A stretch of 64,000 bases of DNA from Chloroflexota bacterium (lineage in GTDB: Bacteria; Chloroflexota; UBA11872): assembly GCA_022821905.1 (NCBI GenBank), contig JAJECS010000025.1, forward strand, positions 41,468 to 105,467, given 5' to 3'. The translations under genes and the position numbers were made by a program. Of this stretch, positions 7,146-50,278 are shown piece after piece (position 1 is the stretch's first letter; each line of letters opens with the position of its first letter). A model generated the notes under the pieces. That model was not told the origin of the DNA and searched no databases. It worked only from the letters and a program-made list of their open reading frames with translations.

Positions 7146-8357
7146 TCAGGGGTTGTCGGGTTCGGTTCGACGGCTGTCGCTTGCGCTCTCCATCGCTGGC
7201 CGAGCCGCGATGGCCTGTTCCCACTCGTCCCGGAGCATGCGATAGAAGATCACATCGACCCGCGAACGGCCGGGCCGGGGGGCGATGTAGTGGTTCCGGG
7301 CCAGCCCTTCGCGTTGCATGCCCAGCTTTTCCATCACCCGCCGGGACTGCAAATGATCGGCGTCGGCGCGGGCCCAAATCTTGGCCAGGCGACGCCGCCG
7401 AAAGCCCCAGTCGAGTACGGCGCCGGCGGCCTCGGGCATCAGGCCCTTGCCCCAGTGCGGCTTCGCCAGGCCGTAGTGCAGCTCGCCCGTCTGGTGTCTG
7501 ACGTCAATGTCGAGGCTGATGACCCCGACGCAGGCGCCGCCTAGAACGATCGCCCAGGAGGGCCGGGCGTCCGGCGAAGCCAGCAGATGGCGCGCGACCG
7601 TCTCCTCGGCGTGTCGTCGCGTATAGGGCCGCGGAACCTCGTCGAGCAGATGTTCGGCCCACTCGGGGTCGCTGGTATAGGCAAACACGTCGTCCACGTC
7701 GCCGGGTTCCATTGGCCGCAGCACAAGCCGGCGGGTGGTCAGCTCGCGGAACTTGCCGCGATCCGTTGAGTCGTACTCGTCGACGGGTCCGGGAATCGGC
7801 GGCAGTGGCTCGCCGCGCCTGCTCCACTCGTCCCGCAGCACGGCGGAGTAGGCCGCGTTAACGCGCGTCCCGCCCATCGCTTCGCTCCGAAGCGTCCCCT
7901 CGCGGGTCATGCCCAGCTTGTCCAGCACCCGCAGGGAGCGCCCGTTTCGGGCGTCCGCCGCCGCGTAGATCTTGGCGAGCCCGTACGCGCGGAACCCCCA
8001 ATCGCAGACGGCCGCCGTCGCCTCAGTCGCGATGCCCCGCCCCCATTGGTCTCTCGCCACGTCGTAGCCCAGCTCGGCGGTTTGGTCCTCGGCATCGACA
8101 TCGAGGCTGACGACGCCAACGACGCGGTCGCCGAGGACGATGGCGAACCTGGCGCCTTTGTCCCATGACGCCAGCACGGCCTGCGCCGCCATGTGCTCGG
8201 CGGCGCCCCGGTCGTACGGACGCGCATAGAACTCGGCCCACTCGGGATCGCTGCCGTAGCTGAGGACGTCGTCGATGTCGGACAGCCGGAACGGCCGCAG
8301 CAGCAGCCGCTCGGTTCGCAGTTCGATGGGATTCGCCAGCGTCGGTCCCTTTGCCAC
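7146..8357 (-). CDS. Fused tandem GNAT N-acetyltransferase (two RimJ/RimL-like domains)
   Basis: Two successive blocks are present: TERLLLRPFRLSDIDDVLSYGSDPEWAEFY...GYDVARDQWGRGIATEA and TRRLVLRPMEPGDVDDVFAYTSDPEWAEHL...HYGLAKPHWGKGLMPEA. Start is uncertain (GTG at 8357 or 8387). The track ORF extends spuriously over the tRNA to 8600. Confidence 0.75.
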   Translation of the reverse strand: MAKGPTLANPIELRTERLLLRPFRLSDIDDVLSYGSDPEWAEFYARPYDRGAAEHMAAQAVLASWDKGARFAIVLGDRVVGVVSLDVDAEDQTAELGYDVARDQWGRGIATEATAAVCDWGFRAYGLAKIYAAADARNGRSLRVLDKLGMTREGTLRSEAMGGTRVNAAYSAVLRDEWSRRGEPLPPIPGPVDEYDSTDRGKFRELTTRRLVLRPMEPGDVDDVFAYTSDPEWAEHLLDEVPRPYTRRHAEETVARHLLASPDARPSWAIVLGGACVGVISLDIDVRHQTGELHYGLAKPHWGKGLMPEAAGAVLDWGFRRRRLAKIWARADADHLQSRRVMEKLGMQREGLARNHYIAPRPGRSRVDVIFYRMLRDEWEQAIAARPAMESASDSRRTEPDNP

Positions 8358-8540
8358 CGGATCGGCAATGTTGCCGGTCCACCCCACAACGCTACTACGC
8401 GTGTGGCAGACGTCCCGCCGCACCCGGGCATTCGCCTCACGGCCCCGAAACGCCGCAGATTCTTGCCCCGGCGAGCTCTCGCCGCCCGGGGGCGTCGGGC
8501 ACTTCTCACGAGCTGCCGCGTCGTCGAGTTGGACAACCAG

Positions 8541-8615
8541 GGTGGGCCGGGTGGGACTCGAACCCACGACCTTCGGATTAAAAGTCCGCTGCTCTACCAA
8601 CTGAGCTACCGACCC
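8541..8615 (-). tRNA. tRNA-Lys (anticodon UUU)
   Basis: Reverse complement is GGGTCGGTAGCTCAGTTGGTAGAGCAGCGGACTTTTAATCCGAAGGTCGTGGGTTCGAGTCCCACCCGGCCCA(CC). It folds as a cloverleaf with anticodon loop CTTTTAA. Confidence 0.9.
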
Positions 8616-8807
8616 GGCCCAAGCTTAATGGTCGGGTGGCCGGGGCGGCGCCTCGCCGCGTTGGTGTGCACGTAGCGGTTCGTCCGCGCACATGTCCATA
8701 GATCCGCGCTCCCACCTGTCACTCCGAGCGCAGCGAGGAATCTAGGACGTTCATGCTCGGCCGCACGGGTGGGCATCACCGACGCACAGCCCGCCTCTGC
8801 CCGCGCC

Positions 8808-9359
8808 TCAGCTCCCGTCCAGCGTGCCCTCGATCTCGAGAATCGCGTCCAGAATCGTGCTGATCGACGGCCGGTCGCCTATGCCCTCGCCCACCTGCCG
8901 CCAGTGCACCACGCGGTGCTCCCCGATCAGCAGCACCGCCGGCGCGGCGACGCCGTCTCCTAGCAGGTCGAACACGCCGAAGCTCTCTGCCACCGCGTGA
9001 TCAGGGTCCGCCAGGATCGGATACTCCGCTCGCGTGTACTGCGCCATATCCGCGGCCCCCTCGACTTCGTCCGTGCTGATGGCGACCGGTCGGTACCCCA
9101 CCTCGGCGAAGAGGGGGATGGCTCCTTGCAGCTCCACGAGCTGCGCGCGGCAGATCCCTCAGAAGAAGCCCCGGTAGAACACCAGGATGACGCCCTGCCC
9201 GTCCTCAACCAGGCCGGACAGCGTCACCGCGTTGCCGTGCGCGTCCTGCACGGTGAAGTCCGGCGCGATCTCCGCGCCCTCCGGCGGCCCCTCCTCGCCG
9301 CATGCCAGCAGCAAGCTGCCCACCAGCGCGAGCGCGGCCAGAACGACCAGTGATTTCAT
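8808..9359 (-). CDS. Peroxiredoxin/redoxin-like (AhpC/TSA fold) lipoprotein with in-frame TGA at the first CxxC cysteine; candidate selenoprotein (or recent nonsense pseudogene)
   Basis: Track ORFs 9159..9425 and 8808..9137 share one frame. Read-through gives MKSLVVLAALALVGSLLLAC...VILVFYRGFF-[TGA 9161..9159]-GICRAQLVELQGAIPLFAEVGYRPVAISTDE... This matches the FYRG.WC..C..QL redoxin signature with TGA at the first Cys. Confidence 0.6.
9128..9144 (-). promoter_or_regulatory. SECIS-like hairpin 14 nt downstream of the in-frame UGA
   Basis: The mRNA reads UGA-GGGAUCUGCCGCGC-GCAGCUC-GUG-GAGCUGC. This is a perfect 7-bp stem with a G/U-containing apical loop about 22-24 nt from the UGA. Confidence 0.4.
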
Positions 9360-9428
9360 GCGGCAAGGATACGGCAGCATCGCCGCACGCGCGGCGCCGG
9401 ACGGCCCGTCCTTCCGTCTTTCCATCCG

Positions 9429-9496
9429 TCATTCCGGCGAAAGCCGGAATCCAGATCCGGCTCCCTCTCCCGGGGGAGAGGGCCGGGGTGAGGGGA
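9429..9496. repeat. REP-like hairpin cluster (attccggc-gaaa-gccggaat; ccctctcc-cggg-ggagaggg)
   Basis: Hairpins at 9431..9450 and 9463..9482, intergenic. The first family recurs at 17045..17064 and, inverted, at 30076..30095. Confidence 0.7.
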
Positions 9497-10828: not shown

Positions 10829-11134
10829 TTAGCGACCGCGTGCGTCCAGTGCGAGGGCGAACCGCTCGACATCCAACTGCTCCGTGCGCTCGCGGGCCTG
10901 CCACAAGTCATGGGCCGTCTGCATCCCCAGCCAAGTCTCGGGCGTCGAGCCGAACGCCTTGGACAGACGCACCGCCATCTCCACCGAGACGCCGGCCCGC
11001 TCGTTCACCAGCTCCGACAGCGCCTGCCGAGTCACGCCCAGGCCCTGCGCCGCCCGCGTCACCGACAACCCAAGCGGCTCCAGGCACTGCCGCTTTACAA
11101 TCCCGCCCGGATGCGGCGGCGCATGCATGGTCAT
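10829..11134 (-). CDS. higA: HigA-family antitoxin (XRE-type HTH)
   Basis: HPGGIVKRQCLEPLGLSVTRAAQGLGVTRQALSELVNERAGVSVEMAVRLSKAFGSTPETWLGMQ. Lies immediately downstream of higB. Confidence 0.85.
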   Translation of the reverse strand: MTMHAPPHPGGIVKRQCLEPLGLSVTRAAQGLGVTRQALSELVNERAGVSVEMAVRLSKAFGSTPETWLGMQTAHDLWQARERTEQLDVERFALALDARGR

Positions 11135-11145
11135 GCCGGCTCCTT

Positions 11146-11424
11146 TCAGTGATAGTCCGTGTAGTCCACGTCCGCTGCATGACCGTTCTCAAAGCGGAAG
11201 GTCACCCGCCAGTTTCCCGACACCGAGACGGCGTAGTGATTGCGTAGGGAACCCTTCAATCGGTGCAGCCGAAACCCAGGCAAATCTATATCCTGAGGCC
11301 CACGACTCTGGTCCAGTACAGCCAGAATGTCCCGTAGTTTGCGGACGTGAGCCGGTGCCACGCGCTGTGCGCCTCGGCCGCGGTAGAGCGCCCGCAGTCC
11401 CCGGTGCTTGAACGAAACGATCAC
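11146..11424 (-). CDS. higB: HigB-family toxin (RelE/ParE superfamily, plasmid-maintenance killer)
   Basis: MIVSFKHRGLRALY...LHRLKGSLRNHYAVSVSGNWRVTFRFENGHAADVDYTDYH, 92 aa, GTG start. The toxin-first order is typical of higBA. Confidence 0.85.
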   Translation of the reverse strand: MIVSFKHRGLRALYRGRGAQRVAPAHVRKLRDILAVLDQSRGPQDIDLPGFRLHRLKGSLRNHYAVSVSGNWRVTFRFENGHAADVDYTDYH

Positions 11425-16937: not shown

Positions 16938-17044
16938 GCGTCGCTCCTCTGCGTTCGTGGCCGATTGGCAAGGCACCGCTAAGTATCGGCCATCCGCTCC
17001 GGGCCAGCGTTCTCCCGTAGGAGACCCTTGGGTAACCCCTTGTC

Positions 17045-17272
17045 ATTCCCGCGAAGGCGGGAATCCACCCTTCATTGAACCTGGAGGCGGACAGGGTGGG
17101 CCCGGTCATATCCAAGCCCGGCTGGGTTTCGCAAGGGTCTTCGTAGGGGCGAGTTTCAAACTCGCCCGTTCACAGCCGGACCGTCACATGGTCGTGGTGA
17201 GATCTGAGAGATGCTCACGACAGGCTCGTCTGCCCGCTCGTGGTGAGCCCGTCGAACCACACCGGATGGCCG
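17045..17272. repeat. Cluster of REP-like elements (three hairpin families)
   Basis: attcccgc-gaag-gcgggaat at 17045..17064. gggcgag-tttcaaa-ctcgccc at 17147..17167. A 41-bp unit gcccgctcgtggtgagcccgtcgaaccacaccggatggccg at 17232..17272. Confidence 0.7.
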
Positions 17273-30013: not shown

Positions 30014-30095
30014 AGGCGGGTCTCAAACCTGCCCGACGCCAAGCATCCGGCGTGCCTCAAGACTGACCGAACTGGATTCCGGCCTCCGCCGGAAT
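30014..30095. repeat. REP-like hairpins (gcgggtctcaaacctgc; attccggc-ctcc-gccggaat, inverted relative to 9431..9450)
   Basis: Read directly, in the intergenic region downstream of BNR paralog B. Confidence 0.6.
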
Positions 30096-30245
30096 GACGG
30101 ATGGTTTACGCATAGGACCCTGCGCGGGGACCCGCTTTGCGGTAGTGACGGTAGGGGGTAACCGCCAACGCGGACGCTCGCGGCATTGACAGAGAGCCGT
30201 GCGGGCGGTACGCCGTAGACGCACCAATGCAGAGATCAGCGCCCG

Positions 30246-41024: not shown

Positions 41025-41522
41025 TTACTCTAGCGTTTCCTCCAGGATCTCCGCCGCCTGCGCCTCGCGCCGCCGGCGGAGGGTCTCACGCAGCGCCGGA
41101 TCGGCCGTGGCGAGAATCTGCGTTGCCAGGATCCCGGCGTTCACCGCCCCGGCCTTGCCAATGGCGACCGTGGCGACGGGGATGCCGCGCGGCATCTGCA
41201 CCGTCGAAAGCAGCGAGTCGAGGCCGTCCAGCGACCACGCCTGCATCGGCACGCCGATCACGGGCAGCATGGTGTGCGCGGCCACGACGCCGGCCAGGTG
41301 CGCCGCGCCGCCGGCGGCGGCGATGATCACGCCCAGACCGCGCGCCTCTGCCGTGCTGGCGTATTCCGCCGTTTCGGCAGGCGTGCGATGGGCCGAGAGC
41401 ACCCGCGCCTCGTGCGCGATGCCCAGCTCTTCCAGGGTGTCGGCAGCAGATTTCATCGTGCCCCAGTCGGAGGCGCTGCCCATCAGGATGCCGACTTTCG
41501 GATCGGAAGATTGGTTGCTCAT
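41025..41522 (-). CDS. purE: 5-(carboxyamino)imidazole ribonucleotide mutase
   Basis: [39 protein letters not shown]...[27 protein letters not shown]. Confidence 0.9.
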
Positions 41523-49324: not shown

Positions 49325-50278
49325 TCAGTCGCGCGGCAGGGCGTCCGCGCGTCGCAACGCGCCGAAGACTTCGAGCTGCTGGCGTTCCAGCTTCGTCCAA
49401 TAGGCCGCGAAATCAACGTCCGACCAGTCGCAGAAGCCGCGCCCGGTCTTGAGCCCCAGGTGCCCGTCAGCCGCCAGGTCGCGGAGCGAAGCGTGCGGCT
49501 CGGACGCGTTCGAAAGGTCGGGCCAGACGCGCTCGGCGCCCCGGGTCGTGATGTCAAGTCCGACGAGATCGCGGTCGCGAATCACGCCCATGAGCGGCAT
49601 GCGCGGCCCGAAGGAGAAGCCGGCGAGCTCGTCGATGTCCTCGGCGGAGATCACTCCGCGTTCCACCAGATCGAGCGCCTCGCGAAAGAGCGCCTGGCGC
49701 AGGCGGTTGGCCACCTGCCCCGGCAGGTCCACGTTGATGCGCACGGGGCGCAGGCCGGCGCCGCGAAGCAGGGCGAGCACCCGCGTGACCGTGGCCTCGG
49801 AAGTCTGCTCGCCCTTGGTGACCTCGACCATGGGGATTATGTAGGCGGGGCGGAAAAAGTGCGTGGTGGTGAAACGGTCGGGGCGGTCGGTGGCGTCGGC
49901 GAGGACGCGGATCGGAATGCTGGAGGTGTTGGTCGCCAGGATCGTCTCGGGCCGCAGGTGCGGCGCCAGATTGCCGTAGACCTCGCGCTTGATCTCGGCG
50001 TCTTCGGCCACCGCTTCGATGATGAGGTCGGCGGGCGCCAGGGCGGCGAGATCGGTTGAGACGCTGATGCGCGGGAGCACGGCGTCGGCCGCGGCGCCGT
50101 CCAGCCACTCGTACTCGACGAGCAGATCGAGGTTCTGACGAATCTTGGCGCGGGCGCGGTCGAAGGCCGTCGGGTCTTGATCGACCATGACCACCGGGTG
50201 CCCGGCAGCGGCGAACACCTGGGCAATGCCGTGGCCCATGAGGCCGGCGCCCAGGACGCCAATCGTTTCCGCACTCAT
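49325..50278 (-). CDS. 3-hydroxyacyl-CoA dehydrogenase family protein
   Basis: IGVLGAGLMGHGIAQVFAAAGHPVVMVD...NTSSIPI...HFFRPAYIIPMVEV. Confidence 0.85.
   Translation of the reverse strand: MSAETIGVLGAGLMGHGIAQVFAAAGHPVVMVDQDPTAFDRARAKIRQNLDLLVEYEWLDGAAADAVLPRISVSTDLAALAPADLIIEAVAEDAEIKREVYGNLAPHLRPETILATNTSSIPIRVLADATDRPDRFTTTHFFRPAYIIPMVEVTKGEQTSEATVTRVLALLRGAGLRPVRINVDLPGQVANRLRQALFREALDLVERGVISAEDIDELAGFSFGPRMPLMGVIRDRDLVGLDITTRGAERVWPDLSNASEPHASLRDLAADGHLGLKTGRGFCDWSDVDFAAYWTKLERQQLEVFGALRRADALPRD

Follow-up and report, generated by a model that had tools for sequence, protein, structure and literature searches.

Selenoproteins that combine a peroxiredoxin-like (Prx-like) fold with a UXXC motif, where the selenocysteine (Sec)-containing peroxiredoxins have TXXU, have been described previously (PMC1088965, PMC2398784, PMC9312934). 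The class was called 'Prx-like protein' in the Sargasso Sea study, has WP_010940744.1 as its listed reference sequence, appears in the Global Ocean Sampling (GOS) study as "Prx-like 1, pfam00578, UxxC" with 225 selenoprotein sequences (PMC2398784), and is defined, as the Prx-like thiol:disulfide oxidoreductase selenoprotein, by a pfam00578 domain carrying a UxxC or UxxU Sec motif (PMC9312934). Here we analyzed a gene on the minus strand, at 8808..9359, of a 64,000-nucleotide stretch of DNA from a Chloroflexota bacterium (positions 41,468 to 105,467 of contig JAJECS010000025.1; hereafter, the window). Like the members of this class, its product has an AhpC-TSA domain with Sec as the predicted first residue of a thioredoxin-like UxxC motif replacing TxxU, its Cys homologues are widespread, and a small hairpin of the selenocysteine insertion sequence (SECIS) type with a G in the loop lies just downstream. 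Since it has the PF00578 domain, a UxxC motif aligned with the Cys of CxxC and the SECIS-type hairpin, the protein belongs to the Prx-like UxxC thiol:disulfide oxidoreductase selenoproteins, a placement made by this definition. The kind of selenoprotein is thus already known, having been catalogued since 2004-2005. Judging from the sequence comparisons, we consider it very probable that the gene undergoes SECIS-directed Sec insertion to give an exported UxxC oxidoreductase of the peroxiredoxin fold. The evidence is the retention of TGA in all 80 homologous loci and in a further one fetched separately, the presence of Cys at the same column in distant relatives, a covarying hairpin that is missing from the Cys forms, and purifying selection past the TGA.

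The gene forms a single frame from ATG 9359..9357 to a stop TGA at 8810..8808, and its sole interruption is a TGA at 9161..9159. Sixty-six codons precede this TGA, which is codon 67, and 116 sense codons plus the stop follow it; these are the 117 intact codons counted in an earlier reading of the letters alone (the sequence-only reading). Re-translation of the frame returned the 183-residue read-through product written there, ...VILVFYRGFF-U-GIC-RAQLVELQ... (in one-frame translation, MKSLVVLAALALVGSLLLACGEEG...VILVFYRGFF*GICRAQLVELQGAIPLF...TLDGS*), and the two open reading frames (ORFs) which it had joined, 9159..9425 and 8808..9137, are in the same frame, with nothing between them but the TGA and the codons that precede a GTG. 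The minus-strand DNA around the TGA reads GTG TTC TAC CGG GGC TTC TTC TGA GGG ATC TGC CGC GCG CAG CTC GTG GAG CTG CAA. Based on the frame, the Pfam match and the ratio of nonsynonymous to synonymous substitution rates (dN/dS), 8808..9359 is a complete selenoprotein coding sequence (CDS) of 183 codons plus stop, with the UGA at 9159..9161 as its predicted Sec codon. The true terminator at 8808..8810 is also a TGA, and it is without a hairpin in the SECIS register.

Using one genome per species, we compared the gene with one locus in each of the 80 best-matching species genomes. These loci, with protein identities of 36-97%, come from three phyla: Chloroflexota (unclassified members, Dehalococcoidia, SAR202 and Anaerolineae), Gemmatimonadota and Latescibacterota. 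TGA occupies this column in 80/80 loci, TAA or TAG never does, and none of the 80 contains a further stop or a frameshift. The TGA is found at the same place on a 3.4-Mb chromosome (L001, 83% identity) and on a 3.2-Mb contig that was fetched separately (L003, 47% identity). In comparisons of the window with five relatives, the 116 codons downstream of the TGA have a dN/dS of 0.10-0.32 and the 47 codons upstream of it one of 0-0.33, which indicates that translation in this frame, and purifying selection with it, continue past the TGA. Moreover, among 5.8 billion proteins searched, about 45 clusters consist of C-terminal fragments of 100-112 residues, which start just past the TGA column and cover only the C-terminal 48-60% of the query, and a 100-aa N-terminal fragment ends in ...VFYRGFF. 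This is the signature of a gene that has been split by gene callers everywhere. As for the residue that the TGA replaces, a close homolog (P0015, 55% identity) has Cys at the column, in CGIC, and a HMMER search of 1.84 billion cluster representatives yielded 3,321 relatives. Nearly all full-length relatives among the top 150 read FYRGxWCPxCxxQL, with Cys where this clade has TGA, and this consensus is the very motif that the sequence-only reading had quoted. About 30 of these 150 representatives are again C-terminal fragments, thus the Sec clade itself is diverse.

These results bear on the possibility that the gene is a pseudogene, i.e., an ordinary CxxC peroxiredoxin-like gene in which a recent nonsense mutation has turned TGC/TGT into TGA or a sequencing error has introduced the stop. 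TGA is indeed one substitution away from TGC and TGT, two short contigs (see below) have TGT or TCA at this codon, and one relative is frameshifted. However, the codon is always TGA in the 80 independent species genomes and in many metagenome assemblies, the loci carry no other stops or frameshifts, and dN/dS downstream of it is low. The recent TGC-to-TGA mutation offered as the alternative in the sequence-only reading is refuted by the conservation of the TGA together with dN/dS, and an error common to all assemblies is implausible given their independent long-read and short-read sources. We therefore give a pseudogene practically no credence. The frameshifted relative (P0016), a close one, is a 146-aa protein on a 12-kb ENA contig, whose frame is shifted for about 45 residues around the Sec site before the family sequence resumes; it is either the result of an assembly indel or a real pseudogene copy.

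Public gene calls on the source scaffold split the gene into 88-aa and 109-aa products; fragments of 84-111 aa and 109-112 aa are annotated on this scaffold and in related genomes, and the NCBI name for one 102-aa fragment is "peroxiredoxin family protein". Taken at face value, such calls would describe a split gene, in which a 66-residue N-terminal lipopeptide assembles with a 109-residue C-terminal fragment initiated at GTG 9137, 21 nt after the TGA. Although callers annotate exactly this arrangement, the GTG is the Val codon of the hairpin loop and is mostly GGC or GGU (Gly) in the homologs, and no restart codon is conserved, the callers starting at differing TTG or ATG codons. Furthermore, the break would cut the fold at the active site and remove the catalytic residue, and the C-terminal piece would have no export signal. 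A split gene is thus very unlikely. Regarding the start of the read-through frame, the leader GCCGTATCCTTGCCGC directly before the ATG (9360..9377, minus strand) is nearly invariant over about 20 nt in seven relatives. Farther upstream the sequences diverge, and the lengths of the upstream ORF vary among the homologs without conservation. The conserved leader favors ATG 9359 over ATG 9425 as the start codon. It holds TATCCT (9371..9366), six bases ahead of ATG 9359, which could serve as a -10 box, if the mRNA is leaderless, or as a ribosome-binding region of an unusual kind.

Downstream of the TGA, the sequence-only reading had pointed to a 7-bp hairpin, and its position and pairing are borne out. 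The hairpin GCAGCUC-GUG-GAGCUGC (9128..9144, minus strand) begins 14 nt past the TGA and pairs 9144..9138 with 9134..9128 around the loop GUG (9137..9135), with the loop G 24 nt from the U of UGA. The published bacterial SECIS (bSECIS) model, as set out in a 2026 review, calls for a loop of 3-9 nt, a stem of 4-16 bp, a G within the first two nucleotides of the loop, most often with G/U after it, a UGA-loop distance of 16-37 nt and a minimum free energy of at most -7.5 kcal/mol (PMC13188914). With its 3-nt GUG loop, 7 bp, a spacing of 21 nt and -10.1 kcal/mol, the window element passes all four bSECIS criteria. As in the E. coli fdhF SECIS and the bSECIS consensus, the hairpin lies inside the CDS immediately 3' of the UGA, has a small apical loop starting with G followed by U/G, and keeps its 21-nt spacing within the 16-37 nt range. 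On the other hand, the conserved element is much shorter than the fdhF SECIS (17 nt, 7 bp and a 3-5 nt loop), and has neither a conserved lower stem nor a bulged U; its binding by SelB is a role suggested by analogy. A lower stem enclosing the UGA was predicted for the window alone, and we rejected it as it is not conserved across the homologs.

The comparative data are more telling. In a gap-free alignment of 73 distinct homologous sequences, RNAalifold finds exactly one helix, namely the 7-bp stem, to which an extended region (-21/+72) adds nothing. Paired cells make up 93.9% of the stem, whereas displacing the 3' partner by 1-3 columns leaves 14-43% paired, and none of 500 shuffles matches the observed pairing or covariation score. 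Four of the seven pairs covary: the basal pair is CG in 29 and GC in 28 sequences, and the others are GC 52 / AU 18, CG 50 / GC 11 and CG 70 / AU 2. The hairpin is thus conserved among the UGA-containing homologs, and at least 90% of the sequences begin the loop with G. As a negative control, we fetched 80 distant Cys-form (WCPxC) genes from metagenomes, giving 79 distinct sequences. In the same register these form a mean of 3.5 of the 7 pairs and none of them has all 7, whereas the Sec forms have a mean of 6.6 and 45 of the 73 have all 7.

The protein conserves QLxEL, and the stem lies wholly within the codons of this peptide, so the hairpin might be a mere by-product of a peptide Q-L-V/G-E-L with self-complementary codons and have no function as RNA; the Cys and Ser variants described below, which keep the stem, would fit such an explanation. 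In pair 27-37, however, the third base of the Gln codon meets the first base of the second Leu codon; 52 sequences have G-C here, 18 have A-U and 3 are exceptions. Both changes are synonymous, so only selection at the RNA level explains this linkage. Where the amino acids do change, the changes are compensatory in the stem (QLVQL is encoded with CAGCUG..CAGCUG, and QIVDL with CAGAUC..GAUCUG), and Cys-form genes that code for QLxEL have only 4-6 of the 7 pairs. A hairpin without RNA function accordingly appears most improbable.

Several observations nevertheless weigh against Sec insertion at this site. A single-sequence fold of the 71-nt region gives z = -0.08 relative to shuffles in this DNA of 67% G+C, so the hairpin alone proves nothing and the comparative data are needed. 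When the bare 17-nt hairpin is evaluated, only 47 of the 73 homologs pass all bSECIS criteria, many missing the energy cut-off by 0.1-0.4 kcal/mol. In two short-contig variants (L086 452-898 and L087 266-937), TGT (Cys) or TCA (Ser) stands in place of the Sec codon, a single substitution from TGA in either case, and the hairpin is kept; it is thus not strictly confined to TGA forms. These variants may be very recent conversions or sequencing errors. Finally, we found neither selA, selB, selD nor tRNA-Sec in the 64-kb window or in about 1 Mb of fetched flanks, more than 80 in number, using ARAGORN on the window and all loci and tblastn with E. coli SelA, SelB and SelD on the window and the flanks. 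This search covered the window and flanks only, and says nothing about whole genomes. At the gathering threshold, Rfam reports only two tRNAs in the window and no match to a SECIS or a tRNA-Sec; Rfam is not expected to include a general bacterial SECIS model, so that the absence of a match carries little weight. No other convincing selenoprotein gene was found in the window or flanks. The Sec machinery is thus assumed for this genome, and our residual doubt stems in part from this assumption, whose support is indirect. According to BSepDB, whose entries include only species with the Sec pathway, Dehalococcoidia metagenome-assembled genomes (MAGs) are among the most selenoprotein-rich bacteria, two of them, with 49 and 46 selenoprotein genes, being among the top ten organisms (PMC13326102).

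The undetected Sec machinery leaves room for a standard amino acid (Trp, Cys or Gly) being inserted at the UGA, through near-cognate decoding, a suppressor or a variant code, with the hairpin merely slowing the ribosome, and two homologs (P0124 and P0125, 173 and 182 aa) do show Trp at the Sec column, in F[FY]RGHFWGICRAQL. This Trp is most likely the depositor's translation of TGA with genetic code 4. The code of the present genome is standard, as UGA is an ordinary stop that ends 13 of the 28 long coding-like ORFs in the window, this gene included. In addition, the site is the nucleophilic position of CxxC, where Trp or Gly would be inactive, the loop G, spacing and size of the hairpin are those of a bacterial SECIS, and the class Dehalococcoidia is documented to be rich in Sec (PMC13326102). 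We consider such decoding improbable. When the whole window was scanned for in-frame TGAs flanked on either side by sequence of coding-like composition, only the TGA of this gene and one ordinary gene boundary emerged; the latter, at 49325-49327 (minus strand), is the stop of a 317-aa gene followed by a 261-aa gene in the same frame and is no recoding site.

With Cys placed at codon 67, the read-through protein matches AhpC-TSA (PF00578) at 9e-25 and 87.5 bits (cut-off 26) over residues 31-153, spanning the UGA, and Redoxin at 1.7e-19, likewise across the TGA. None of the NCBIfam models reaches its cut-off for this protein. The best match, the SelL-related redox protein NF040769, scores 56.4 bits against a cut-off of 120 over profile positions 3-99 of 173, so this identity was ruled out. 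So were the Sec-peroxiredoxin PrxU (TxxU; NF040737, 22.8 bits vs 270), relative to which the Sec here lies three residues before the peroxidatic position, and the ResA-like WAxxUGC selenoprotein (NF041054, 26.4 bits vs 300), the motif here being FFUGIC.

The closest solved structure is that of Mycobacterium tuberculosis AhpE (Rv2238c), a 1-Cys peroxiredoxin with the same fold and the common local motif F-x-G-I-C-x-x-x-L. In the alignment with AhpE (E = 1.8e-10), FYRGFF-U-GIC-RAQLVEL stands against FFPLAF-T-GIC-QGELDQL, so that the redox motif U67-G-I-C70 (9150..9161, minus strand) falls on T-G-I-C. Sec67 thus occupies the position of the catalytic Thr, C70 that of the peroxidatic Cys, Arg33 that of the Pro, and Pro140, which is nearly invariant in the family, that of the catalytic Arg. 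The sequence-only reading had placed the TGA on the redox-active first Cys; this is right insofar as the codon falls on the first Cys of a CxxC motif, but in terms of AhpE the U stands at the catalytic Thr and it is the next Cys that falls on the peroxidatic position. The protein therefore has the fold of a canonical peroxiredoxin (PxxxT/SxxC plus Arg) without its catalytic Pro, Thr/Ser and Arg, only the Cys (C70) being kept, and we rejected this identity. AhpE, in contrast, has the PxxxTxxC plus Arg triad, is cytoplasmic and contains no Sec. The AlphaFold model of the Cys-form homolog P0015 (pLDDT, the predicted local distance difference test, 96.8) has Cys37, the counterpart of U67, immediately before helix 38-49 and Cys40 in the first turn of this helix, and its best matches in the PDB are Bcp4 and AhpE, both with a TM (template modeling) score of 0.89. 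In the Ser-form variant, the position of the peroxiredoxin Arg is also occupied by Arg (LATRSTF).

CxxC in place of TxxC, together with Pro for Arg opposite the active site, is a mark of the thiol-disulfide oxidoreductases of the TlpA/ResA/CcmG type and not of peroxidases. On the strength of the alignments, the active site is a predicted thioredoxin-like UxxC on a peroxiredoxin scaffold, with no swap of Sec for the peroxidatic Cys, and the protein looks like a thioredoxin-style UxxC oxidoreductase rather than a canonical peroxidase. ResA, TlpA and CcmG are likewise membrane-anchored or exported thioredoxin-fold proteins of the AhpC-TSA/Redoxin kind with CxxC and a Pro opposite the active site, and the read-through protein matches ResA structures at E of about 4e-6 and NF002854 at 6e-9. 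They differ, however, in having WCxxC with Cys and no Sec, the score of the read-through protein is far below the family cut-off (36 vs 170 bits), and no cytochrome-maturation or CcdA/DsbD neighbor is conserved at the loci studied here.

The N-terminus of the protein carries a predicted signal peptide (9300..9359, minus strand) with a lipobox, MKSLVVLAALALVGSLLLA followed by C, this Cys20 being encoded at 9302..9300. K2, a hydrophobic core and L-L-A-C20 match the lipobox pattern [LVI][ASTVIL][GAS]C. Most of the 80 homologs also have, at about 45-60 or about 100 residues ahead of the Sec, a hydrophobic segment, a small residue and a Cys, the lipobox equivalents being LLAC, ALSC, LAGC, LVGC or LSAC. 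Tethering outside the cytoplasmic membrane, as a lipoprotein, is therefore the most likely arrangement. Given the established bacterial mechanism, the UGA at 9161..9159 would be decoded as Sec in translation, the mRNA hairpin 14 nt downstream acting as a bacterial SECIS element that would recruit SelB with Sec-tRNA(Sec) to the ribosome. The product would be a 183-residue protein of the peroxiredoxin fold, anchored by its signal peptide and lipobox on the outer face of the cytoplasmic membrane, with U67-G-I-C70 forming a thioredoxin-style active site at the start of a helix. As to its presumed chemistry, the selenolate of U67 may attack a substrate disulfide, sulfenate or peroxide, and the resulting intermediate may be resolved by C70 as a selenenylsulfide, to be recycled by a reductant system of the membrane.

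Unlike the Prx-like class as described, the clade here has FYRGFF-U-G-I-C and a lipoprotein or membrane anchor, and only Sec forms occur in the 80 best-matching species genomes. Whether the FYRG-x-F-U-G-x-C clade amounts to a separate, uncatalogued subfamily, which would be lipid-anchored and extracytoplasmic, with Sec essentially fixed and a minimal 17-nt SECIS, we consider rather doubtful, though possible. If so, a distinct subfamily, with the tandem and cytochrome-fused forms described below, would suggest a redox relay that depends on selenium and is located at the outer face of the membrane, instead of a role in cytoplasmic antioxidant defense. The understanding of Sec decoding and of Prx-like selenoproteins is unchanged by our finding, the value of which lies mainly in annotation and in the covariation example. 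The gene is mis-annotated wherever it is found, and as a result of the split annotation, redox and metabolic inventories of the abundant Chloroflexota of soil, sponges and the sea omit it. The 80-species alignment provides a clean example of a SECIS in a coding region whose covariation can be separated from protein constraint, and might be useful for training selenoprotein finders. Moreover, the conserved predicted export signal enlarges the small set of predicted extracytoplasmic bacterial selenoproteins.

Some homologs differ in domain architecture. A contig from Logan SRR28208100 (L089 1-1255) has two Prx-like domains in one frame with two in-frame TGAs, at …FYRGFF*GTCQNQLVEL… and …FYRGFW*IQCKKQLVE, the second TGA also being followed by CAGCTCGTGGAGC; judging from this frame, it would be a tandem two-Sec form. 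In a 189-aa protein from a 12-kb contig (P0050, JGI/ENA), the C-terminal part of the family is fused to a c-type cytochrome domain (CLGCH; PF13442/PF00034), which hints at an extracytoplasmic electron-transfer role. In three Anaerolineae loci (L061, L068 and L079), the open frame ahead of the Sec domain is 426-468 codons long, suggesting fusion to a larger N-terminal protein, and at another locus (L047) the frame runs 421 codons past the TGA, giving a long C-terminal extension.

We also looked at the gene neighborhoods, although this analysis is noisy due to spurious ORFs in G+C-rich DNA. No neighbor is conserved across the family, and CcdA/DsbD, Msr and sel genes were not found at the loci; synteny is only clade-specific, with a threonine-synthase-like gene at 23 loci. 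The context therefore gives no clue to the redox partner. In the window, the selenoprotein gene is followed after about 190 nt by a tRNA-Lys(UUU) gene at 8541-8615 (minus strand), into which the long ORF 7146..8600 runs; the gene called in this region on the source scaffold encodes a 413-aa protein with two acetyltransferase domains. Adjacent ORFs for a 101-aa helix-turn-helix (HTH, HigA-like) protein and a 92-aa HigB/RelE-like protein at 10829-11424 (minus strand) are a probable toxin-antitoxin pair, which in the relative with the 3.4-Mb chromosome (L001) carries the Pfam annotations HigB-like_toxin and HTH_3. Finally, four copies of a small palindromic repeat, GATTCC-N8-14-GGARTGAC, are present in the window, although chance would predict none: at 8718-8742, 9428-9451 and 17042-17065 on the minus strand and at 30075-30098 on the plus strand, the first two copies bracketing the selenoprotein gene. 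The inner stems vary by copy (CGGC..GCCG or CCGC..GCGG), similar units are located upstream of the gene in the relatives L004-L009, and the repeat looks like an intergenic element of the REP (repetitive extragenic palindromic) kind.

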